Source of the DNA: Bacillota bacterium
Lineage (GTDB): Bacteria > Bacillota > Clostridia > Monoglobales > Firm-18
Assembly (NCBI GenBank): GCA_022706765.1
Contig: JAKJBX010000003.1
Location: forward strand, 10,291-74,290
Direction: 5' to 3'
DNA length: 64,000 nt
The position numbers and the translations under genes were made by a program. Below the pieces are notes generated by a model. It had not been told where the DNA came from and did not search any database. It saw only the letters and a list, made by a program, of their open reading frames with translations. Positions 3,581-57,747 of the stretch are shown here, one piece after another. Positions within the stretch are counted from its first letter, which is position 1; each line of letters opens with the position of its first letter.

Positions 3581-3620
3581 CCGTCCGGAGCGCAATGCGC
3601 TTCGGACGGTTTTGTTTTTT
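3581..3620 (+). terminator. rho-independent terminator of the sugar operon
   Basis: CCGTCCGGAGCGC-AAT-GCGCTTCGGACGG stem (one G.U) followed by TTTTGTTTTTT. Confidence 0.75.
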
Positions 3621-3689
3621 ATAGGAAATTACGCAAAATCGGCGTAATTTCCGCACTTCGGCGAAATGAATCCGCCTACGCTTAGGCAC
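3620..3689 (+). repeat. Intergenic repeat R2 copy 1
   Basis: TATAGGAAATTACGCAAAATCGGCGTAATTTCCGCACTTCGGCGAAATGAATCCGCCTACGCTTAGGCAC; 11-bp perfect hairpin GGAAATTACGC/GCGTAATTTCC. Recurs at 6592-6654 (inverted) and 52699-52765. Confidence 0.8.
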
Positions 3690-3756
3690 ATCATGCCGAT
3701 GCCGTCATACAATGACATTAGGAAACAAATTAAACATAATGAGGTTAGGGTAAGAC

Positions 3757-6561: not shown

Positions 6562-6591
6562 AATTGTAGGTTTATGCGTAAAGAACAAAGC

Positions 6592-6654
6592 ATAGGCGAA
6601 TTCATTTCGCCGGAGCGCGGAAATTACGCCGATGTTGTGTAATTTCCTATAAAT
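6592..6654 (-). repeat. Intergenic repeat R2 copy 2 (inverted orientation)
   Basis: Reverse complement reads TATAGGAAATTACACAACATCGGCGTAATTTCCGCGCTCCGGCGAAATGAATTCGCCTATGC. Lies in the 5' leader of the permease operon. Confidence 0.8.
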
Positions 6655-6691
6655 AAATAAAACCATACATAGCGAAGGCGGTGCACAGGTA

Positions 6692-8817: not shown

Positions 8818-8890
8818 GAATGACAGGAAATTTTTATTTCCTACTCATACAAAATAACATAAATGCGTTTTCCCGGCATGAAAAATGTAA
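8818..8890 (+). repeat. Degenerate copy of repeat R1 (hairpin module plus eroded core)
   Basis: AATGACAGGAAATTTTTATTTCCTACTCAT nearly identical to the 28601 hairpin. Followed by ..TTTTCCCGGCATGAAAAA resembling the TTCCTTGGCAAAGG core. Confidence 0.4.
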
Positions 8891-19820: not shown

Positions 19821-19852
19821 AAACAGACAGCTGCCCGCAGCTGTCTGTTTTT
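19821..19852 (+). terminator. rho-independent terminator
   Basis: ACAGACAGCTG-CCCG-CAGCTGTCTGT followed by TTTTT. Confidence 0.85.
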
Positions 19853-19945
19853 AATAGGGTGGGAAATCAGAATTTCCCACCCTATTAAAAACATTTAATT
19901 CATTCCTTGGTAAAGGGTCGCGTCAGCGCACCTTAAAAGCGACAT
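19853..19945 (+). repeat. Repeat R1 copy A
   Basis: Perfect 15-bp hairpin AATAGGGTGGGAAAT-CAGA-ATTTCCCACCCTATT, then core AAAAACATTTAATTCATTCCTTGGTAAAGGGTCGCGTCAGCGCACCTTAAAAG. The 3' hairpin is eroded. Confidence 0.7.
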
Positions 19946-20046
19946 GAAGGCGGGGCAATTTTTACAAAGATTTAAGGGAATGATGATGGGAACTTTTTTC
20001 CGTATTTGTCCGTCATAACGGTAAAGGTATGAAAGGGGATAATGGT

Positions 20047-22328: not shown

Positions 22329-22385
22329 TGACCTCCCTGCCTATTTCTGTTACTATTACAGTAACAGAAATAGGCAGGGAGGTCA
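22329..22385 (+). promoter_or_regulatory. 26-bp perfect palindrome (5-nt loop): terminator-like hairpin whose left arm carries a promoter-like sequence and whose right arm carries the SD of the FHA gene
   Basis: TGACCTCCCTGCCTATTTCTGTTACT-ATTAC-AGTAACAGAAATAGGCAGGGAGGTCA. TTGACC(22328)-17 nt-TACTAT(22351); GGGAGG at 22377-22382, 8 nt before ATG 22391. Confidence 0.6.
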
Positions 22386-22843: not shown

Positions 22844-22908
22844 AAGGAAAGCTTTAATATCTTATTTTGTGCCGGCGCGGAGCGGCGGAACGGAGGTTGA
22901 TACAGATG
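22831..22908 (+). repeat. Intercistronic repeat R3 copy 2 (uninterrupted)
   Basis: GGTGGTCGTGTGAAAGGAAAGCTTTAATATCTTATTTTGTGCCGGCGCGGAGCGGCGGAACGGAGGTTGATACAGATG. Spans the FHA stop codon through the rodA start codon. Confidence 0.7.
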
Positions 22909-24129
22909 AAGGTTTCCATGCTGAAACGACCGGTCATCATGCTGGTGCTTGTCAACGTGCTGGCGTTTGTTTTGCTCTATTCCTACCGTATGCCGCCAAG
23001 CGCCAACACGCTTTTGATCGGCGCATCCATTCTGACGCTCAGCGCTGCGACCTACCTGATGATTTCCCGAAACCACCTCGGCGACGAATATCTGTTCCTC
23101 ATTGTTTCTATGCTGGTCACCATCGGCGTGGCGATGCTCTGCCGCATCAAATATGCCCTTGGCATCGCACAGGTCGGTTGGTATCTCATCGGCATTTGCG
23201 TGTTCTATGCCGCCTATGCGGCGATGCGCTATGTCGGTCTGTGGAGGCGCCTGAAATGGGCTTATGCCGGCATGTCGGCGCTTCTTTTTGCCGCAACACT
23301 GGCTTTCGGCGTCACCATCAACGGCTCACGCAACTGGATCATCCTCGGCGGACACTCCTTTCAGCCGTCGGAGGTCATCAAGATCCTCTTTGTGTTCTTT
23401 ATCGCCTGCTGCTACGGGCAGCCCAAGACCGAGCGGCGCGGCAAGATTTCCGTCAAATATATCGTTACGGGCGTCACCTATGTGTTCATGCTGTTTCTGA
23501 TCATGCAGCGTGAGTGGGGCATGACATTGCTCTTTTTTGCGACCTACCTGGTTTTGACCTATATTTACGAAAACGACAAACTGCTGCTGCTTGGCAATGT
23601 GCTGTTGACGTCCGTTGTGGGGCTTGTTGGCTACCACGCGCTGTGGCACATCCGTATCCGCATCGCCAGCTGGATAAACCCCTGGGCGGACATTTCAAAC
23701 ACCGGCTATCAGATCACCCAGTCACTGTTTGCGATCGCCTCCGGCGGCTTTTTCGGCAAGGGTATCGGGCTCGGCAATCCCGAGTTTATCCCAGAGGTGC
23801 ATTCTGACTTTATTTTTTCCGCCATCTGTGAAGAAATGGGCATCCTCGGCGGCGTGGCGGTTATCCTTTTGTATTTTATCTTTGTATATAGGGGCGTCAA
23901 GATCGCGCTGATGCTGCCGGAGGGGTTTGAAAAGTGTGTGGCGGTGGGATTGACCGTGCTGTTTGGTATCCAGACCTTCATGATCCTTGGCGGGGTTGTA
24001 AAGCTTATCCCCTTGACAGGCATCACGCTGCCGTTCGTCAGCTATGGCGGCAGCTCGCTGGTAACCAGCTTTGTTTCGCTGGGCATATTACAGGCAATCT
24101 CGGCAAAAAGGAGGCTTGCGGGTGATTAA
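22906..24129 (+). CDS. rodA: FtsW/RodA/SpoVE-family peptidoglycan polymerase
   Basis: Start moved to ATG 22906. 10-TM SEDS pattern, PEVHSDFIFSAICEEMG and LPFVSYGGSS motifs; followed by class B PBP. Confidence 0.85.
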   Translation: MKVSMLKRPVIMLVLVNVLAFVLLYSYRMPPSANTLLIGASILTLSAATYLMISRNHLGDEYLFLIVSMLVTIGVAMLCRIKYALGIAQVGWYLIGICVFYAAYAAMRYVGLWRRLKWAYAGMSALLFAATLAFGVTINGSRNWIILGGHSFQPSEVIKILFVFFIACCYGQPKTERRGKISVKYIVTGVTYVFMLFLIMQREWGMTLLFFATYLVLTYIYENDKLLLLGNVLLTSVVGLVGYHALWHIRIRIASWINPWADISNTGYQITQSLFAIASGGFFGKGIGLGNPEFIPEVHSDFIFSAICEEMGILGGVAVILLYFIFVYRGVKIALMLPEGFEKCVAVGLTVLFGIQTFMILGGVVKLIPLTGITLPFVSYGGSSLVTSFVSLGILQAISAKRRLAGD

Positions 24130-25510
24130 CAAACGGATAATCCGGGTGCTGACCCTTATCAGCTTTCTCTTCGTTTCGCTCATCGGCTATCTGACCTATT
24201 TTCAGCTTACCAGGGGCGAGGATATTTTGCAAAGCCCCTACAACAAGCGGCAGTGGGAGTATGACGACACCGTCAAACGGGGGTCTTTTTTGGACCGCAA
24301 CGGCAAGGTGCTCGCCTACTCACAGGACGGCAAGCGGTTTTACAGCTTCGGTGCGCTGTACAGCCACGTGATCGGCTACAACTCCAATATCTACGGACGC
24401 ACGATGCTGGAAGCGCGCTTTAACAAGCTGCTTTTGGGCAGGCGTGAGCTGACCGAGGTCTTTAACCTGAACATCGACAGCAAGACGGGCTATGATCTTA
24501 CGCTGACTGTCGACCATGCATTGCAAAGCTATGCGGCTAACCGTTTAGGCGGCAAAAACGGCTCGGTCGTTGCGATCAACCCCAAAACCGGAGAGGTGCT
24601 TGCGCTGGTCAGTAAACCGGATTTTGATCCCAACGAGGACGCGCTGATCAAAAACTGGAACGACCTGACCGAGGATGAGCAGTCGCCGTTGCTGGCGCGC
24701 GCCACGAGCGGGCTGTATCCCCCTGGCTCGACCTTTAAGATCATCACCACGACCGCCGCATTGGAAAACGGTTTAGCAGCCGAAACCTTTGACGACATCG
24801 GCAGCGTAACTATTGGTGGCGCAGTTTTTGAAAATTTCGGTAAAAAAGCCAACGGCGTCATCGACCTTAAAAAAGCCTTCGCCCTGTCAAGTAATTTCGC
24901 CTACTGCACACTGGGAGCAAAGCTGGGCAGCGGACGTATGGGTTCGGCGGCGGAGCGGTTTGGGTTTAACAAGTCCTTTGACTTTGATATTGATATGAAT
25001 CAAAGCAAATTCCCGATGAACGATACCGACGAAGCGGGCAGCGCAGCGCTCGCCATCGGTCAGGGGAAGCTGCTTGCGACACCGGTGCATATGGCGCTTG
25101 CCGCTTGCGCTGTGGCGAATGACGGCGTCATTATGAAGCCGTACCTCGTCGCCTACGCGACGAATGCGTCGGGCGGCAGGGTCTATGAAGTCCGGCAGCA
25201 GCAACTGTACAGGGCGATGTCGGCGGAAAATGCCGCAAAAATCAAGGATATGATGGTCGAAACCGTCAAAAGCGGCACGGCAACGGCGTCCGTTATACGC
25301 GGCGTCACCGTCGCGGGAAAGACGGGCACCTCTGAAAACGAGCTGCTAAACCAAATGAAGGACAAGGAGCATGCGTGGTACGTATGCTTTGCGCCTGCTG
25401 AGGATCCGCAGATCGCCGTCGCAGTGATGCTTGAATATAGCGGCGGCAGCGGCGGCGGACTTTGCGCCCCGATTGCACGGGATATTTTGCGCCAATATTT
25501 TAAAAAATGA
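24122..25510 (+). CDS. class B penicillin-binding protein (PBP2-type transpeptidase)
   Basis: GTG 24122 with AAGGAGG SD, overlaps rodA stop. STFK, SSN, KTGT active-site motifs. Confidence 0.9.
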   Translation: MINKRIIRVLTLISFLFVSLIGYLTYFQLTRGEDILQSPYNKRQWEYDDTVKRGSFLDRNGKVLAYSQDGKRFYSFGALYSHVIGYNSNIYGRTMLEARFNKLLLGRRELTEVFNLNIDSKTGYDLTLTVDHALQSYAANRLGGKNGSVVAINPKTGEVLALVSKPDFDPNEDALIKNWNDLTEDEQSPLLARATSGLYPPGSTFKIITTTAALENGLAAETFDDIGSVTIGGAVFENFGKKANGVIDLKKAFALSSNFAYCTLGAKLGSGRMGSAAERFGFNKSFDFDIDMNQSKFPMNDTDEAGSAALAIGQGKLLATPVHMALAACAVANDGVIMKPYLVAYATNASGGRVYEVRQQQLYRAMSAENAAKIKDMMVETVKSGTATASVIRGVTVAGKTGTSENELLNQMKDKEHAWYVCFAPAEDPQIAVAVMLEYSGGSGGGLCAPIARDILRQYFKK

Positions 25511-27838: not shown

Positions 27839-27863
27839 CAATAGTGGCAGTTTGTGTTACTAT
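27835..27863 (+). promoter_or_regulatory. candidate promoter of rplU-rpmA-obg
   Basis: TTGACA (overlaps nfnB stop)-17 nt-TACTAT; leaves an about 85-nt leader. Confidence 0.4.
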
Positions 27864-27949
27864 AACTTGGTATCCGCACAAAAGAGGTTTGCAAATACGG
27901 CTCCGCCGTATACCTTCATTGGCGAGTTTTTAATTACGGAGGTGCGTAA

Positions 27950-28574: not shown

Positions 28575-28600
28575 GGGTAGGCTGAGCGCTTACCCTTTTT
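28575..28600 (+). terminator. rho-independent terminator after rpmA
   Basis: GGGTAGGC-TGAGC-GCTTACCC then TTTTT. Confidence 0.7.
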
Positions 28601-28704
28601 CATATGACAGGAAATTTTTATTTCCTGTCATATGAAAACAATTCATTCATTCCTTGGCAAAGGCTTCCGTCAGCGCACTTAAAAAGTGCCTTTCGGCACT
28701 TTTT
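28601..28704 (+). repeat. Repeat R1 copy B (most complete)
   Basis: CATATGACAGGAAAT-TTTT-ATTTCCTGTCATATG, then AAAACAATTCATTCATTCCTTGGCAAAGGCTTCCGTCAGCGCACTT, then AAAAAGTGCC-TTTC-GGCACTTTTT. Confidence 0.85.
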
Positions 28705-28751
28705 ATATTCATACGAATTTAAATTACGGTTTGGAGAAAGATGAGGGTATT

Positions 28752-31839: not shown

Positions 31840-31900
31840 CGTCGCCGCATGGCGCTTTTCGATGCGCCGCCGTAAACTTTTTTCAGGGAATGGAACAATC

Positions 31901-31925
31901 AAAGGCGTGCTTTGGCACGCCTTTT
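31901..31925 (+). terminator. rho-independent terminator
   Basis: AAAGGCGTGC-TTTG-GCACGCCTTTT. Confidence 0.8.
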
Positions 31926-31986: not shown

Positions 31987-31996
31987 AATAGTAGTG

Positions 31997-32023
31997 TTAG
32001 CACTCGATGGATTAGAGTGCTAA
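31997..32023 (+). promoter_or_regulatory. CIRCE operator (HrcA binding site)
   Basis: TTAGCACTC-GATGGATTA-GAGTGCTAA, a perfect match to TTAGCACTC-N9-GAGTGCTAA. Confidence 0.95.
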
Positions 32024-32046
32024 CAGCCAAAGCGGAGGTGTCTCGC

Positions 32047-33087: not shown

Positions 33088-33129
33088 TAGAGCGTCCCAC
33101 AACTATGTGAAAGGAATGAATGAGAAGCG

Positions 33130-36637: not shown

Positions 36638-36757
36638 AAAAAGTGCCATACGGCACTTTTTTATATGGATAGGAAATAATTTAATTGATTCCTTGGCAAA
36701 GGCTTGCGTCAGCGCACCAAAAAGTGCCATATGGCACTTTTTTATATGGATAGGAAA
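36638..36757 (+). repeat. Repeat R1 copy C, bracketed by a 39-nt direct repeat (81-bp period); first hairpin doubles as the dnaJ terminator
   Basis: AAAAAGTGCCATAyGGCACTTTTTTATATGGATAGGAAA at 36638-36676 and 36719-36757. Core TAATTTAATTGATTCCTTGGCAAAGGCTTGCGTCAGCGCACC lies between them. Confidence 0.85.
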
Positions 36758-36813: not shown

Positions 36814-37515
36814 ATGGCAGGTAAGCGTATTTTTGTGGTGGATGACGAGCCGCACATCTGTGAGCTGGTCAAGTATAATTTAGAAAAAAGCGGGTATGCG
36901 GTCGATGCCTTTTACAGTGCAGAGGATATGTTCAGCGCACTGCCGGTGCAAAAGCCGGATATGATCATTCTTGATTTGATGCTCCCTGAGATGGACGGGC
37001 TTGCCGCCACGCAAAAGCTGCGCAATAACCCTGCGACCGAAAAAATCCCGATTATCATGCTGACCGCAAAAAACGAGGAGCTCGACCGGGTCATCGGGCT
37101 TGAAATAGGCGCCAACGACTATATGTCAAAGCCGTTTAGCGTTCGTGAGCTGCTCGCCAGGATGAAGGTCATCTTCCGATGGGCAAAAACCGTCGAGGAA
37201 TTCGACAACAGCGATGTGATCTATGCGCAGGACCTCATCATCAACAATGCCAAGCATATGATCATGCGGGGCAGCGAGGTCTTTAAGCTCACCTTAAAGG
37301 AATATGAACTGATCAAGACACTCGCCCAAAACAAGGGCAACGTCATGTCACGGGATGTACTGCTTGACCGTGTCTGGGGGTATGACTACTTCGGCGAAAC
37401 ACGCACCGTGGACGTCCACATCAGGCACATCCGCAAGATACTGGGTGACGAAAATGAAAAATACATAGAAACTGTCAGAGGCGTCGGCTATCGTTTCAGG
37501 GAACAGCCTGTGTGA
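36814..37515 (+). CDS. OmpR/PhoB-family response regulator
   Basis: Receiver (DLMLPEMDG, K at MSKPF) plus winged-helix (RTVDVHIRHIRKIL..IETVRGVGYRF). Confidence 0.9.
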   Translation: MAGKRIFVVDDEPHICELVKYNLEKSGYAVDAFYSAEDMFSALPVQKPDMIILDLMLPEMDGLAATQKLRNNPATEKIPIIMLTAKNEELDRVIGLEIGANDYMSKPFSVRELLARMKVIFRWAKTVEEFDNSDVIYAQDLIINNAKHMIMRGSEVFKLTLKEYELIKTLAQNKGNVMSRDVLLDRVWGYDYFGETRTVDVHIRHIRKILGDENEKYIETVRGVGYRFREQPV

Positions 37516-37542
37516 CAAATAACGCAATAATGGGGTAACGCT

Positions 37543-38808
37543 ATGCACGAGGGTCGCTTTAATCTGCAACGCAAAATGATTACGGGCTATGTGCTTATTA
37601 TGCTGGTGGGGGCGCTGTTTGCAGGGCTTTTGTTTTTTTTGCGCTTTCAGATACAGACTGATGACAACATCGAAGCACAGATGCGCCTGACCGCACGACT
37701 GTTTGGCGCTGAGCTTGACAAATACGGCATTGAGGACGCCGCCGGCATTGTCGACACCGTCGAAAAAATATCAGGTATGCGTGCGACGGTCATCGCATTT
37801 GACGGAAGCGTTGCGGCGGATTCACAGGACTCGCTGCAAAATCACCGTGACCGACCGGAGGTGAGCGGCGCCTTTAAGTTTGGAGAAGCCATCGCTACCC
37901 GCAAGAGCGATACAACCGCGCATTACTATAAATATTTTGCCGGCGCGCTTCAAATTGACGGCGAGGACTATGTCATCCGCATCGCCAAGGAGCTGCACCC
38001 GCTCAATCAGGTCGGTACAAGGCTGTTCTTTTTGGGCTTGCTGATCGCCGTTGCCATCAGCCTGGTCTTTGCCTGGATCTCGGTCGTCAAAAATATTTCA
38101 AATATTCGCCGCTTGCAGCAAATCCGCAGCGAGTTTGTGTCGAACGTCACGCACGAGCTGAAAACGCCGCTGACCTCTATCAAGGGCTTTGTGGACACGT
38201 TGAAGCAGGGGGCGATCGGCGACGAAGCCGTTGCGGAGCACTTTTTGGACATCATCGACATAGAGGCGGACAGGCTGACCGCACTGATCAACGACATCAT
38301 GGAGCTGTCGGAAATCGAAACTATGCGGGGCGACAAGGGCATTTCGGACTATATCATCGACGACATCATCGGTGACGTCGTCAGCATCATCACGCCGGGC
38401 GCCGAGAAGAACGGTATCAAACTGACGGTACGGAAAAGCCCCGCTGTGTCGATTGTGCGTATAAACCGTGACCGGTTAAAGCAGCTTTTGATCAATCTTT
38501 TGGATAATTCTATCAAATACTCCAACCCCGGGGGCAGCGTGATCTTAGACTGCGAGCTTTCGGGCAACAACGTGATTTTCACCGTGTCAGACGACGGCAT
38601 CGGCATCGCCGCGGAGCATCTCGCCCGCATCTTTGAGCGGTTTTACCGGGTCGACAAGGGGCGTTCGAGAAAGCGCGGCGGCACAGGTCTCGGGCTTTCG
38701 ATCGTCAAGCATATTGTAGAGCTTTACAGGGGGGACATCAGCGTAAAAAGCGTCGAAGGACAGGGGACGACCTTTGTCGCAACACTGCCCATCGCCGTGC
38801 AAATGTAA
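37543..38808 (+). CDS. membrane sensor histidine kinase (PhoR-like HisKA + HATPase_c)
   Basis: Two TM segments; H-box SEFVSNVTHELKTPLTSI; N, G1 (DDGIGI) and G2 (GGTGLGLSI) boxes. Confidence 0.85.
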   Translation: MHEGRFNLQRKMITGYVLIMLVGALFAGLLFFLRFQIQTDDNIEAQMRLTARLFGAELDKYGIEDAAGIVDTVEKISGMRATVIAFDGSVAADSQDSLQNHRDRPEVSGAFKFGEAIATRKSDTTAHYYKYFAGALQIDGEDYVIRIAKELHPLNQVGTRLFFLGLLIAVAISLVFAWISVVKNISNIRRLQQIRSEFVSNVTHELKTPLTSIKGFVDTLKQGAIGDEAVAEHFLDIIDIEADRLTALINDIMELSEIETMRGDKGISDYIIDDIIGDVVSIITPGAEKNGIKLTVRKSPAVSIVRINRDRLKQLLINLLDNSIKYSNPGGSVILDCELSGNNVIFTVSDDGIGIAAEHLARIFERFYRVDKGRSRKRGGTGLGLSIVKHIVELYRGDISVKSVEGQGTTFVATLPIAVQM

Positions 38809-39024
38809 CTCGTAGAAAAGATGTCCTCCGCTTCTATAACATAGGTGCAAGCCACGCCTTGTTGAAACGCATTATGGTGTGAAAATTTTTCTGCAAACGA
38901 AAATTTTTCAGTCCGTTTACGTTATAGATATTTGTAGGAAATAGCTATAAATTCCCCGAAAGATTGTACATTTTTTTTGTTTATTCTAACAGGAAACCGA
39001 CAACTTGTATAGAATATAATTATT

Positions 39025-39122
39025 TATATGGTGGAAAAATTATGTTTTTCACCATATAAATGCAATGGATGGCTTCCCTGGCAAAGGTTTTGGATGTGCG
39101 CCTAAAACGTCGGAGACGTTTT
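39025..39122 (+). repeat. Repeat R1 copy D
   Basis: TATATGGTGGAAAAA-TTATG-TTTTTCACCATATA (one bulge), then AATGCAATGGATGGCTTCCCTGGCAAAGGTTTTGGATGTGCGCCT, then AAAACGTC-GGA-GACGTTTT. The last stem differs in sequence from other copies but still pairs. Confidence 0.7.
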
Positions 39123-39182
39123 GATATAGAAGTGCTGCGTCTGCGCTTTTAGAGTACTAATCTTTGAGGAGGATTGATAGGT

Positions 39183-42878: not shown

Positions 42879-43165
42879 ATCCTCACCCCGCCCTCATTAT
42901 AGCAAAATATTGTTATAAAATCAAGCCGAGGTTTTACGACACATAAAGAGCCTGTGTTCACAAAGGCTTAGTGAATGCGAATGTGCCTTTGCGCGGAAAA
43001 GGAGGATCAAGGCAGCGGGTGGATGTTTTTGTGCAACGAAAACGAAGCAAAGCGAACTTTGCTCCGAAGTGGTGTGAATACTTATAAGGGGCATAATCAT
43101 TTTGTTTCGGGTAATAAAAATCGCCCATAGAAGAAACTATGAGCGAAAGAGACGGACCATGTCCG

Positions 43166-44950: not shown

Positions 44951-45733
44951 ATGTTCAATAAACACTCGCAATACCTGTTCTTTCTCATAACGGTCATGCT
45001 TGCGCTGACAGGGTGCGCCGCGACAAAAACGGCTCAACCGTCGACTGTAACCTATGATTTGGAATGGGCAAAGGCACAATTTGCACTAAGCGGCTTTGAA
45101 CCGACTGAGATCAAGCCGATCCTGTACACGGAAAAAAGACCAATCCTCATTGACATGAATGCATTTGAATTCACGCTGCATGGGTACAGCGGCATAGAGG
45201 ACACCGGCAAATCGAACAGCTATCTGCCGGAATTCAATATGATTTACGCCATGGAGATCAAAGAAATCGGCGGCGATTATTATCAGAAAATCGACGTGTT
45301 GTCCACGATGGTCAACGCCTACCGTGCAGGCTATGGGCTGATTTTTGAGGACTGGAATAAAGACGGTTTTACCGATATACAGCTGCACAAATATGAAGGC
45401 GGTTCGATGGGAAACGCACCGTCGCTGTTTTGGCTTTGGGACGCCGGAAAGAAGATGTTTGTTGGGAATAAGCAATTGGAAGAAATCAGCGAATATTCTT
45501 CTGTGTATATTAAACGGGAAGAAAACAATCTTGTCAGAAGCTTTACGAAAACAGGCGCCGATGGATACTGTTTGGTATACTATAACTATATAGGCGGCGA
45601 GTTTGTTATGGTGGAGAAGGAGGAGCAGTATGCCGAAGGTATTGGGGATGTCACATACATCATCCATAGAGTATCTAAGCTGATTGACGGCGAAATGAAG
45701 GTCGTCAGTGAAACAAAAACAAAAGCTGAATAA
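44951..45733 (+). CDS. hypothetical lipoprotein
   Basis: Lipobox LALTGC; NKDGFTD FG-GAP/VCBS-like segment; no family recognised. Confidence 0.6.
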   Translation: MFNKHSQYLFFLITVMLALTGCAATKTAQPSTVTYDLEWAKAQFALSGFEPTEIKPILYTEKRPILIDMNAFEFTLHGYSGIEDTGKSNSYLPEFNMIYAMEIKEIGGDYYQKIDVLSTMVNAYRAGYGLIFEDWNKDGFTDIQLHKYEGGSMGNAPSLFWLWDAGKKMFVGNKQLEEISEYSSVYIKREENNLVRSFTKTGADGYCLVYYNYIGGEFVMVEKEEQYAEGIGDVTYIIHRVSKLIDGEMKVVSETKTKAE

Positions 45734-45770
45734 CCCCTATATAAAGGTATTTACCTTTATATAGGGGTTA
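45731..45770. terminator. 19-bp perfect palindrome between convergent genes (bidirectional terminator candidate)
   Basis: TAACCCCTATATAAAGGTA-TT-TACCTTTATATAGGGGTTA. Left arm begins with the TAA stop of the + gene; no U-tract. Confidence 0.55.
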
Positions 45771-51315: not shown

Positions 51316-51342
51316 AAAAAAGCGCCGTTTCGGCGCTTTTTT
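51316..51342. terminator. bidirectional rho-independent terminator
   Basis: AAAAAA-GCGCCG-TTT-CGGCGC-TTTTTT between convergent genes. Confidence 0.8.
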
Positions 51343-51447
51343 ATCTTATTGGGAGATTTGAGAAATTTCCTATGAGATAAAAACAATTAATTCATTCTTT
51401 GGCAAAGGCTTTTGGCTGTGTACCTAAAAAGCGTCGAAAGCGTTTTG
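51343..51447 (+). repeat. Repeat R1 copy E
   Basis: Eroded GGAGATTT..AAATTTCC hairpin, then AAAAACAATTAATTCATTCTTTGGCAAAGGCTTTTGGCTGTGTACCT, then AAAAAGCGTCGAAAGCGTTTT (pairs only with G.U wobbles on the + strand). Confidence 0.65.
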
Positions 51448-51470
51448 TTACATGGTATCCAACGGGCAAT

Positions 51471-52475: not shown

Positions 52476-52631
52476 GGCAATACTCCGTTCCGCCGCCCTG
52501 CTCCGGCGCTGGATTGACGACCGAACAACCCTTGTCAGCAGGGGAAAAAGAGTGCGCAGGACGCAAAAGTCCGGTCAGCACTAATATCTTATACCCAAGC
52601 CGCCTGTTTGTCAAGTTCAAGCGACTGTTTT

Positions 52632-52693
52632 CAATTCATGCCTTGGCAAAGGGTTATGTCAGCGCACCTAAAAAGTGCCTGCCGACACTTTTT
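52632..52693 (+). repeat. Repeat R1 copy F (core plus 3' hairpin)
   Basis: CAATTCATGCCTTGGCAAAGGGTTATGTCAGCGCACCTAAAAAGTGCCTGCCGACACTTTTT. Confidence 0.75.
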
Positions 52694-52698
52694 GATTT

Positions 52699-52765
52699 TA
52701 GTAGAAAGTTACGAAAAATCGGCGTAATTTCCACGTTTCGGCAAAAATGCATTTCGCCTTCGCAT
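52699..52765 (+). repeat. Intergenic repeat R2 copy 3 (diverged), directly abutting R1 copy F
   Basis: TAGTAGAAAGTTACGAAAAATCGGCGTAATTTCCACGTTTCGGCAAAAATGCATTTCGCC. Followed by nested hairpin CGCCTTC-GCATCCGCT..AGCGGATGC..GAAGGCG (52755-52801). Confidence 0.65.
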
Positions 52766-52851
52766 CCGCTTGCGCGGTGAGCGGATGCGTTCGGGAAGGC
52801 GCTGCGCACCTAAACGCTTTTTTCATATTTCAAGAAAATTGCAATTTTTAC

Positions 52852-56445: not shown

Positions 56446-57747
56446 ATGAGGTTTTTCTATTCAATGCGTTATATTAAGACGGCCGTTTTGATGCTGCTGC
56501 TGACAGCGCTTGTGCTTGTGGGTCCGGCGTATGCGGCAAGCAGCTACTACGAACAGGCGAGGGTTCTTTACAATCTCAACCTTTACAAAGGAACGAGTGC
56601 GACCTATTTTGAGCCGGATTTGGAGTCTTATGTTGACCGGGAAACCGCAATCGTTTTGGTTTTGCGTCTATTCGGCAAGACCTCCGACGTCGAAAATTAT
56701 TATGATTACCGTGTACAAAGCATCCTCAGCGCATACAGCGACGGCGGCGACGTCTCGTCGTGGGCAAGGAAATATGTCGCTTATGCGATCAACAACCAGC
56801 TGTTTCCGGGTGAGCTCCAAGGGTCTGTTTTGCCGAAGCGTTATATCGACGGCAAGACGTTTATCGGTCTTATGCTGAACTGCATGGGCTATAAGCTCTA
56901 CGGCGACCAGTGGACGATAGCCGCCTATATCAATTCCTACCTCGGCGGGGTTTCTGCGGACGATGCGCGGTATGTCAACGACAAGATCATTTCCAAAAAC
57001 GATATGGTCGCCATCATATGGGAGTCGCTCGATATGCCGACGAAGGATTACGCGACGCTGCTTAACATGATCGTGGATTACAACAGCATCAGCTCTTCGA
57101 AGCTGACGCAATTGGGCTTTATTCGGGTGAACGGCAAGCTGATCCCTCCGGCGTTCTACTCCACCGGACTGGCGACCGCCACCGATTACTCGGTCGGATA
57201 CACGATGTCAGACGGCTCTAAATATGCGGGCGGCACCTCCGGCGGCGTGCCGGACGGGTTTGGTGTCGTCACCTATGAGGACGGCAGCGTCTATGAGGGA
57301 TATGTTTCCGCGGGCAAGCGGCACGGCGAAGGCAAATTATTAAGAAGCGACGGCTTTGTTTATGTCGGCGGCTGGCAAAATGACATGATGAATGGCAAGG
57401 GCGCCATGACCTGGGCAAACGGCGACAGATACTCCGGTGATGTGGTCAACGGCTCTTTCCAGGGCACCGGCACCATGACCTGGGCAAGCGGTAACGAGTA
57501 CACAGGTCAGTGGTGGGCAGGGAATTTCCACGGCAAGGGGAAATTCAAATGGAACAACGGCGACTATTACGACGGCGAATGGAATATGGGCGTTTTTAAC
57601 GGCTACGGCACGATGATGCGCTCAAACGGCGAGATGTACGAGGGCTATTGGGAAAATGGCAAAAGACACGGCTACGGTAAATGCATACTCGCTGACAAGA
57701 CTGTTTTGATCGGCAGATGGGAAAATGACGAGTACGTTGGGTCGTAA
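56446..57747 (+). CDS. secreted MORN-repeat protein with SLH-like N-terminal region
   Basis: Signal peptide MRFFYSMRYIKTAVLMLLLTALVLVGPAYA; about 8 MORN repeats (YEGYVSAGKRHGEGK, YVGGWQNDMMNGKG ...). Confidence 0.75.
   Translation: MRFFYSMRYIKTAVLMLLLTALVLVGPAYAASSYYEQARVLYNLNLYKGTSATYFEPDLESYVDRETAIVLVLRLFGKTSDVENYYDYRVQSILSAYSDGGDVSSWARKYVAYAINNQLFPGELQGSVLPKRYIDGKTFIGLMLNCMGYKLYGDQWTIAAYINSYLGGVSADDARYVNDKIISKNDMVAIIWESLDMPTKDYATLLNMIVDYNSISSSKLTQLGFIRVNGKLIPPAFYSTGLATATDYSVGYTMSDGSKYAGGTSGGVPDGFGVVTYEDGSVYEGYVSAGKRHGEGKLLRSDGFVYVGGWQNDMMNGKGAMTWANGDRYSGDVVNGSFQGTGTMTWASGNEYTGQWWAGNFHGKGKFKWNNGDYYDGEWNMGVFNGYGTMMRSNGEMYEGYWENGKRHGYGKCILADKTVLIGRWENDEYVGS

Follow-up and report, generated by a model that had tools for sequence, protein, structure and literature searches.

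R1, a modular intergenic hairpin repeat in a housekeeping region of an uncultured Clostridia-like genome

What kind of element is the structured sequence that lies between rpmA and obg at 28601-28704, and why should one like it stand beside so many unrelated genes? We studied it as one copy of a modular intergenic repeat of about 100 bases, here termed R1, throughout the 64 kb stretch of DNA that was analysed (the window). The reading to which we give about an even chance is that R1 is a lineage-specific, non-autonomous dispersed element of REP/MITE-like character, co-transcribed by read-through, whose hairpin and terminator would act on RNA. The evidence for this reading and for its rivals is given below.

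Copies of R1 and their genomic setting

A sequence-only reading had placed an intergenic repeat family here. The sequence at 28601-28704 is present as described, and the family is confirmed as real and far above chance expectation: when up to 3 mismatches are allowed, the core 19-mer CATTCCTTGGCAAAGGCTT is found 5 times in the window but never in 100 dinucleotide-preserving shuffles, and nhmmer, run with a profile of the core and the 3′ hairpin, returns six + strand copies with E values of 1e-14 to 1e-21. A three-helix covariance model (CM) scores the same six copies at 71-126 bits, values that hold by construction because the model was built from those copies; with filters off it gave no further convincing + strand copy in the window. 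In total, the 64 kb hold eight copies or remnants, comprising six clear copies and one eroded copy on the + strand and one diverged inverted copy on the − strand. They are listed here with their parts.

8818..8890, + strand, eroded R1 copy (nhmmer not significant; CM sees the hairpin alone, E 3.5)
19846..19969, + strand, R1 copy after the terminator (19821-19850) of a PPIase gene (nhmmer E 1.2e-18; CM 96 bits)
19846-19893, + strand, its 5′ hairpin, 22 bp, perfect
19939-69, + strand, its 3′ hairpin, degenerate, just the A/T runs retained
28597..28710, + strand, R1 reference copy between rpmA and obg (nhmmer E 1.5e-21; CM 126 bits)
28597-28638, + strand, its 5′ hairpin, 19 bp, perfect, loop TTTT, taking in the T-tail of the rpmA terminator
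28635-28680, + strand, its core
28680-28705, + strand, its bidirectional terminator-like hairpin, AAAAAGTGCC-TTTC-GGCACTTTTT
31844..31924, − strand, diverged inverted R1 copy (nhmmer E 5.5e-6; CM 23.7 bits, E 0.003)
36638..36661, + strand, R1-type terminator hairpin with AAAAAGTGCC-ATAC-GGCACTTTTTT, beginning 3 nt past the dnaJ stop codon
36657..36748, + strand, R1 copy with the left hairpin arm only (nhmmer E 2.8e-20; CM 81.7 bits)
36662-36677, + strand, its left arm, joined straight to the core
36719-36742, + strand, its 3′ hairpin, intact
36743..36757, + strand, second copy of the left half-arm TATATGGATAGGAAA, 3′ of the 36719-36742 hairpin
39022..39128, + strand, R1 copy in the probable 5′ UTR of an EF-G paralogue (nhmmer E 3.3e-14; CM 93.5 bits)
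39022-39061, + strand, its 5′ hairpin, 17 bp with one G·U pair
39104-39122, + strand, its 3′ hairpin, a short AAAACGTC/GACGTTTT stem, weaker variant
51338..51454, + strand, R1 copy between convergent genes (nhmmer E 1.3e-18; CM 96 bits)
51338-83, + strand, its 5′ hairpin, imperfect, with 3 G·U pairs and a bulge
51427-51447, + strand, its 3′ hairpin with 2 G·U pairs, weaker variant
52598..52699, + strand, R1 copy without the 5′ hairpin, in a divergent promoter region (nhmmer E 1.3e-20; CM 71.5 bits)
52670-93, + strand, its 3′ hairpin with one C·A mismatch

The copies proposed by the sequence-only reading include these six clear ones and the eroded one at 8818, but its possible relic at 42958-42992 was detected by neither nhmmer nor the covariance model, and the inverted copy at 31844-31924 had been missed. 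The main support for the 8818 copy is a run of 23 nt through the left arm, the loop and the start of the right arm that is identical to 28604-28626; beyond this run the right arm is broken, the decayed core has lost about 20 nt, and the terminator is absent. The inverted copy lies between a thioredoxin-like gene and hrcA and consists of the core and a GCGCC/GGCG hairpin; a GC-rich hairpin at 31901-31924 adjoins them. Next to dnaJ, the hairpin at 36638..36661 is the first member of a direct repeat with a spacing of 81 nt; the segments 36719-36742 and 36743-36757 together repeat 36638-36676 with 91% identity over 46 nt, and this is a recent local duplication.

The window is a housekeeping region of an uncultured Clostridia-like genome (51.5% GC) whose genes include rplU-rpmA-obg, hrcA-grpE-dnaK-dnaJ, mfd and nusB, and R1 or a remnant of it occupies about 8 of the approximately 18 intergenic gaps longer than 100 nt. 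The genes that flank R1 encode Obg, an OmpR-type regulator, an EF-G paralogue, a beta-propeller protein, a LytTR regulator and an epimerase; neighbours so diverse and functionally unrelated imply that R1 is not the leader of one regulon. Four copies (19853, 28601, 36662 and 51343) begin exactly at the T-tail of the upstream gene's terminator, the one at 51338 lying directly 3′ of a bidirectional terminator (51316-51342), and only these four directly follow a terminator, which corrects the claim that R1 usually sits just 3′ of one; the copies at 39022 and 52598 lie in promoter-proximal settings. Upstream of the EF-G paralogue, the 39022 copy separates the GAGGAGG ribosome-binding site of that gene from a conserved promoter-like block, TATAGAATAT, so its hairpin would probably be at or near the 5′ end of that gene's mRNA.

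Seven of the eight copies are on the + strand, and the strict co-orientation claimed for the family does not survive the − strand copy at 31844-31924. Because nearly all genes of the window are also on the + strand and GC skew is positive throughout, the orientation of R1 is confounded between transcription and replication.

Modules of R1 and compensatory change in the 5′ hairpin

Three modules make up R1, namely a 17-22 bp hairpin, a core of about 45 nt and an A-run/GC-stem/T-run hairpin, and a full copy follows the order T-run, variable stem, loop, variable stem, A-run and core, A-run, GC stem, loop, GC stem, T-run. The 5′ hairpin is real and paired as first described, but the original figure of about 15 bp was too short because the upstream terminator's T-tail also takes part in the stem, where its partner is the AAAA at the start of the core; moreover, the 36657 copy has one arm only and the 52598 copy has none. 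Conservation among the copies is uneven, with 87% identity in the core block ATTCATTCCTTGGCAAAGG (19 nt), 85-87% in the A- and T-runs, 74% in GTCAGCGCAC, about 53% in the linkers and 20-37% in the loops, which are effectively random.

The arms of the 5′ hairpin can be aligned among copies and are just 57-64% identical, yet they are complementary. Both sides have changed in 9 of 18 pairs, and 97% of cells are paired versus 52-59% when the partner columns are slid, values that were reached in 0 of 500 shuffles. Stem covariation, which the sequence-only reading had taken as a sign of a selected structure, is upheld by these counts, and they support the conclusion that the structure of the 5′ hairpin is selected or maintained. 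The stem cells that are not Watson-Crick pairs are six of G·U type versus one or two of A·C type (p about 0.06), a weak hint that the + strand is the one that folds. For the reference copy (28597..28710) the minimum free energy (MFE) is -42.3 kcal/mol, with a z of -10.2.

The 3′ hairpin reads AAAAAGTGCC-loop-GGCACTTTTT at 28680-28705, 36719-42 and 52670-93, GTGCC/GGCAC being the stem in these three copies, where the module is a textbook intrinsic terminator for both directions; the hairpin after dnaJ (36638-61) is another of this type. The differing stems reported at 39104-39122 and 51427-51447 were correctly seen, but the 19853 copy has no intact 3′ hairpin. Where an intrinsic (Rho-independent) terminator is taken as a GC-containing stem of at least 5 bp and a short loop followed by a U-run, 3-4 copies carry one in this module. 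The possibility that the 3′ hairpin copies the local upstream terminator was rejected, given that GTGCC/GGCAC is common to three copies regardless of site. Rejected likewise was a small ORF within R1: MKTIHSFLGKGFRQRT occurs in one copy alone, no start is conserved, and the frame has a stop in one copy and a frameshift in another.

The state of the hairpin is independent of decay in the core and terminator, as seen in the 19853 copy, which joins a perfect 22-bp stem to a broken 3′ hairpin. Both there and at 39022, which carries the most diverged core of all, the 5′ hairpin stays perfect despite a drifted core or terminator, and in the one copy located in a 5′ UTR the terminator has been remodelled. 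Perfect hairpins in drifting copies, together with the remodelled 5′-UTR terminator, suggest local selection on single modules, and it is chiefly on this suggested selection that the case for some role in the host, as opposed to pure junk, rests.

One rival reading makes R1 a transcription attenuator or riboswitch-like leader, acting on downstream genes through the core and terminator. Core and terminator do lie upstream of + strand genes, and the MFE folds of the 39022 and 51338 copies pair the core with the 3′ arm of the terminator in an antiterminator-like manner; in neither fold is the helix followed by a U-run, and at 39022 it displaces the short 3′ hairpin. Such alternative pairings are nevertheless out of register among copies, R1 matches no cis-regulatory family of Rfam, and the gene contexts largely refute the reading: the downstream genes are unrelated in function, in four copies the terminator of the preceding gene is directly adjacent and no promoter intervenes, convergent genes enclose one copy, and a further one is inverted. 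We regard an attenuator as highly improbable.

Another reading, unlikely in our estimate, takes the copies as paralogous host RNA modules, which would work in trans as a multicopy small RNA built of a 5′ stem-loop, a conserved single-stranded seed of 19 nt and an intrinsic terminator, or else in cis as a UTR element for read-through and mRNA stability, with spread as a side issue. It would account for the contrast between the 19-mer and the loops in conservation, and for compensatory changes whose exceptions are mostly G·U rather than A·C. The layout of hairpin, unpaired core and terminator is that of many Firmicute small RNAs, and at 39022 the mRNA of the EF-G paralogue would begin with the hairpin, as is classic for a 5′ stabiliser. 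A stretch of 13 nt in the core of the 28601 copy pairs without mismatch with the grpE ribosome-binding region (33111-33123), but this match is found in one copy only and may be due to chance. More generally, pairing of the core with 46 translation-initiation regions is no better than that of random natural 25-mers of the genome (means of -9.3 to -12.8 versus -10.7 ± 1.8 kcal/mol). Neither in nor before the element is there a sigma-70-like promoter on either strand, and three copies would have no space for one, their hairpin being contiguous with the upstream terminator; two copies are without the hairpin, one is without the terminator and one is inverted. R1 has no Rfam match and is missing from the relatives' loci that were examined, and the small-RNA option of the sequence-only reading finds support neither in promoters nor in target pairing.

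Several candidate signals were considered along the way and set aside. An anti-Shine-Dalgarno seed beats mononucleotide shuffles but not the natural 25-mers of the genome, and was rejected as evidence. No sigma-70 promoter is present on the + strand of R1; on the − strand, TTGCCA-17-TTTnAT is without the key A at position 2 of the -10 element and is lost, on inspection, in copies that have no right hairpin arm. A sigma-54 site would have a GG-to-GC spacing one base short, with TTGC in one copy only, and the consensus sequences of ECF, SigH, SigE and SigK showed no fit in R1 by inspection.

Distribution beyond the window and the case for a mobile element

The closest retrievable relatives used for comparison were as follows.

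GCA_036820785.1, Obg 80% (locus L013)
ENA/Logan lineage, 40% GC, Obg 75% (locus L006)
ADurb.Bin193-like genomes, 47% GC, DnaK 91% (loci L014 and L015)

Over 66 kb of these loci the covariance model returned nothing under E 0.85. Conservation in relatives, for which the sequence-only reading had proposed a comparison of orthologous intergenic regions, did not emerge, R1 being absent at three sites. Between rpmA and obg, the terminator of the L27 gene is conserved in three genomes (the window, L006 and L013), and only in the window does R1 start, immediately after its T-run. At the junction of the PPIase and beta-propeller genes R1 is absent from the orthologous intergenic region of L006, and at the EF-G paralogue L015 shares the blocks on either side of the element, but the window is about 140 nt longer, 98 nt of which are R1, here too lying directly 3′ of a T-run. 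The lack of R1 at these three orthologous sites points to multiplication within this lineage; the presumed insertions are inferred from absence in relatives that are distant (Obg 75-80%, DnaK 91%).

Searches of public collections likewise gave no second host. In Rfam 15 no match to R1 was found at the gathering or E-value threshold, in line with the original statement that it belongs to no known family, and at E up to 5 only generic long-hairpin (miRNA precursor) models match the 5′ stem. A degenerate 30-nt core pattern had 5 matches in 185,579 species genomes (one per species), 2 in JGI metagenome contigs and 0 in IMG/VR; the seven matches are ascribed to chance because they cover only the pattern itself and lie in unrelated organisms, and such scans demand an exact match to one pattern, so that diverged relatives of R1 may escape them. 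BLAST against plasmids and phages yielded no R1 match, translated frames of R1 (spurious ORFs across copies) had no scoring candidates among 5.8 billion proteins, and a literature search with the core sequence retrieved unrelated primers only. R1 is a new family, apparently private to its lineage, in a familiar class of genome features.

The window also holds three copies of a second repeat family, R2. All of these lie 3′ of a T-run, one of them immediately 3′ of the R1 copy at 52598..52699, and R2 shares with R1 the left end 'T-run + ATAGG..GGAAAT'. In R1 itself, 5 of 5 copies with an intact left end follow a T-run (TTTT(T) or TTATTT), which may equally be part of the element's own stem. Among the R1 copies are eroded, truncated, inverted and locally duplicated ones, as is usual in a family with birth and death of copies; these states, the dispersed copies, the restriction to one lineage, the T-run junctions and the sister family R2 lead us to a small non-autonomous element of the REP/MITE kind.

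Under this mobile-element reading, R1 would have spread through the genome by landing immediately 3′ of T-runs, which belong to terminator tails or to AT-rich DNA near promoters, and would bring its own A-run/GC-stem/T-run hairpin, able to stop transcription from either side. Read-through from the gene before it would then transcribe an inserted copy, except at 39022, where transcription would start at the promoter of the gene that follows. In the + strand RNA, the 19-22 bp hairpin could form a barrier to nucleases or a site of double-strand processing, and the 3′ hairpin could act as an insulator or back up the existing terminator, while local selection would retain the hairpin and remodel the terminator where termination is harmful. 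The mobiliser may be a hairpin-recognising single-strand DNA enzyme encoded elsewhere in the genome.

Against mobility stand the dissimilar end hairpins, the lack of terminal inverted repeats and of a clear target duplication, and the lack of a transposase: no transposase, TnpA, RAYT or IS200-type (Y1_Tnp) gene was found among the approximately 50 main ORFs of the 64 kb window scanned against Pfam, a set that comprised all main ORFs but 22867-24129, 24071-25510 and grpE. The first two of these three are FtsW- and PBP-like by synteny. Furthermore, the copies are old and unevenly conserved and their hairpin integrity is decoupled from decay, which suggests that each copy is maintained in place, and such maintenance fits a host function better than a purely selfish element.

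R1 among described repeats

The REP, BIME and REPIN elements of Proteobacteria (RAYT/TnpA-REP) resemble R1 in being short, abundant, extragenic hairpin repeats that lie mostly downstream of genes and are probably transcribed. BIMEs also join different palindromic units by a conserved linker, and in REP and BIME elements, as in R1, hairpins are kept while the sequence drifts and families are species-specific. The 5′ hairpins of R1, 38-48 nt in four or five copies, correspond to REP palindromes, which are imperfect, 20-40 nt long and repeated extragenically. Two REP superfamilies are defined by an unpaired GTAG or CGTC tag abutting the stem (PMC3733652). No such tag abuts the R1 stem, where the flanking T-run and A-run pair with each other; in R1, CGTC is confined to the core of 3 of the 6 copies, where it lies about 11 nt short of the 3′ stem. 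R1 further differs from REP in its AT-rich hairpin with T-run and A-run flanks, in carrying its own A-run/stem/T-run terminator, and in its Clostridia-like Firmicute host, neither Firmicutes nor Clostridia being mentioned in PMC3733652.

The terminal inverted repeats of classical MITEs are absent from R1, its left end (C/T)ATATG.. and right end ..GGCACTTTTT not being reverse complements. T-runs flank the element, the right one being the terminator tail and the left one pairing with the element's A-run, and no other target duplication is visible. In having no terminal inverted repeats and no clear target duplication, and a hairpin at each end, R1 is like the IS200/IS605-derived palindrome-associated transposable elements (PATE), which are mobilised as single-stranded DNA. 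Those elements insert 3′ of a fixed tetra- or pentanucleotide, and R1 may do likewise with a T-run. The end hairpins and the apparent preference for a short 5′ flank recall single-strand DNA (IS200/IS605, REP-type) biology. In IS200/IS605, one TnpA binds similar hairpins at both ends, whereas the left hairpin of R1 is AT-rich, 17-22 bp and variable by copy, and is unrelated to the GTGCC/GGCAC hairpin on the right. For IS608 and ISDra2, PMC6006769 reports the lagging-strand template as the active strand. The pairing-competent strand of R1 would similarly be the lagging-strand template, but gene orientation is identical and the bias is thus confounded.

Correia/NEMIS elements of Neisseria and ERIC elements of enterobacteria are about 100-150 bp long, gene-adjacent and co-transcribed, and their long RNA hairpins are nuclease substrates that alter mRNA stability or termination. 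Their hairpin arises from terminal inverted repeats over the whole element, and a TA duplication is made; R1 differs in its local 5′ hairpin, non-palindromic core and separate terminator. The pneumococcal BOX, RUP and SPRITE repeats and bcr1 of the Bacillus cereus group are lineage-restricted modular intergenic repeats with stable predicted RNA and T-rich insertion sites. R1 shares these traits, but its module order differs and no sequence similarity is detectable (no Rfam match); to our knowledge none of these four has been described as hairpin, core and bidirectional terminator. R1 works like REP/BIME, Correia/ERIC or BOX/RUP, yet it fails the testable defining features of each. 'REP/BIME- or MITE-like', one of the labels first offered, is still the best as the description of a dispersed element, and it describes a working mode rather than membership of families whose GTAG/CGTC tag or terminal inverted repeats R1 does not carry.

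If the mobile-element reading is true, R1 would join the few known structured intergenic repeats that influence where operons begin and end, as an example from a Gram-positive, uncultured lineage, and would supply housekeeping genes at their ends (rpmA, dnaJ, the leader of the EF-G paralogue) with a long RNA hairpin and a terminator that works both ways. R1 would also be a clean case in which to ask whether repeat hairpins are maintained copy by copy, through host selection or intrapalindrome correction, or in active source copies only. The 19-mer and the self-maintaining hairpin may reflect either a host function or the needs of a putative mobilising enzyme. As a kind of genome feature R1 is ordinary; it would be no surprise to a specialist and opens no long-standing question, while for the annotation of metagenome-assembled genomes such repeats matter in that they break assemblies and mimic small-RNA genes.

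A bolder version would make R1 and R2 an undescribed, hairpin-guided mobile 'terminator cassette' of Clostridia that inserts specifically at the U-tract end of intrinsic terminators already in place, is kept by the host as a read-through insulator or RNA-processing module, and has its 19-nt core recognised by a protein or RNA partner; a variant would be a mobile multicopy small-RNA family. We hold this to be unlikely. Still more doubtful, and quite improbable in our view, is that a chromosome-organising or regulatory protein has its DNA site in the 19-mer ATTCATTCCTTGGCAAAGG, alone or together with the GGAAAT..ATTTCC palindrome, the hairpins being incidental or aiding extrusion. Such a site leaves unexplained the perfect 19-22 bp complementarity of arms that vary in sequence and covary; the 19-mer is non-palindromic and by inspection fits no recognised consensus, and the spacing of GGAAAT and ATTTCC is 4 nt in R1 versus 17 nt in R2. 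What speaks for a protein site is that the copies are polar relative to replication, with GC skew positive throughout, and that the most invariant bases form a short block, TTGGCAAAGG, amid variable sequence; the GGAAAT/ATTTCC inverted repeat is found in R2 as well, and the (G)TAGGAAAT motif recurs in the intergenic DNA of the relatives.

A second intergenic repeat family

Alongside the ~100-nt R1 repeats (5′ hairpin, core and terminator-like 3′ hairpin), the window carries a second family of intergenic repeats, here termed R2, with a unit of ~75–90 nt and three copies detected in the window by nhmmer (E-values 1e-25 to 1e-28):

3607-3698, + strand, R2 copy
6576-6665, - strand, R2 copy
52688-52779, + strand, R2 copy adjoining the R1 copy at 52598-52699

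Each R2 unit is laid out as a T-run and ATAGGAAATTACGC-loop-GCGTAATTTCC followed by GCACTTCGGCGAAATGAATCCGCC, and its left end, “T-run + ATAGG..GGAAAT,” is common to R1. R2 was not found in relatives, where the sole trace is a weak GTAGGAAATTGCGCAAAAT motif at L014 and L015, two loci of ADurb.Bin193-like genomes.

R1 and the neighboring genes

The R1 copy between rpmA and obg places two terminators in tandem ahead of obg. At the corresponding locus of a relative with an Obg similarity of 80% (GCA_036820785.1, L013 1-112), a good sigma-70-like obg promoter, TTGGCA-17-TATTAT, lies 3′ of the terminator that follows rpmA; in the window, the stretch separating obg from the R1 terminator (28705-28751) shows no promoter comparable to this one. 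Upstream in the same gene cluster, 27862-27939 (+) holds a sub-threshold match to RF00559, the ribosomal protein L21 leader (26.7 bits vs. a gathering score of 36), immediately upstream of rplU, the position expected of such a leader.

In the window, a pair of genes for an OmpR-type response regulator and a histidine kinase (36814-38808) separates dnaJ from an EF-G paralogue and is flanked by two R1 copies in the same orientation (36657-36748 and 39022-39128). The ADurb.Bin193-like relatives (L014/L015 13107-13518) have that EF-G gene directly after dnaJ, without this extra pair in between, and the placement of the R1 copies could reflect an R1-mediated rearrangement or a coincidence. The dnaJ to EF-G spacer of these relatives (L014/L015 13193-13290) has a different intergenic repeat of their own, made of GTCATTCTGAGGC..GCCGAAGAATC hairpin units, and it seems that each lineage holds its own private small repeats.

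The ribosome-binding region of grpE contains AAGGAATGAATGA (33111-33123, +), a perfect 13-nt complement of the R1 core at 28643-28655. The window would contain ~0.2 such matches by chance when up to one mismatch is allowed, and this one may be accidental or a piece of an inverted R1. A canonical CIRCE operator, TTAGCACTC-N9-GAGTGCTAA (31995-32025), precedes hrcA-grpE-dnaK-dnaJ, with a promoter, TTGACA-17-TATCGT, upstream of it.

Other hairpins and repeats

The strongest hairpin of the window, unrelated in sequence to R1, is a perfect 26-bp stem with an ATTAC loop (22329-22385) in the spacer between a beta-propeller gene and an FHA-domain gene. Because its right arm contains GGGAGG, likely the ribosome-binding site of the FHA gene, the hairpin could sequester that site. 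An AT-rich perfect 19-bp palindrome, TAACCCCTATATAAAGGTA-TT-TACCTTTATATAGGGGTTA (45731-45770), lies between convergent genes and has a T-run on neither side. The four tandem 69-nt units at 57394-57645 are an ordinary coding repeat: they lie within a gene and correspond to MORN repeats (Pfam PF02493) in its product.
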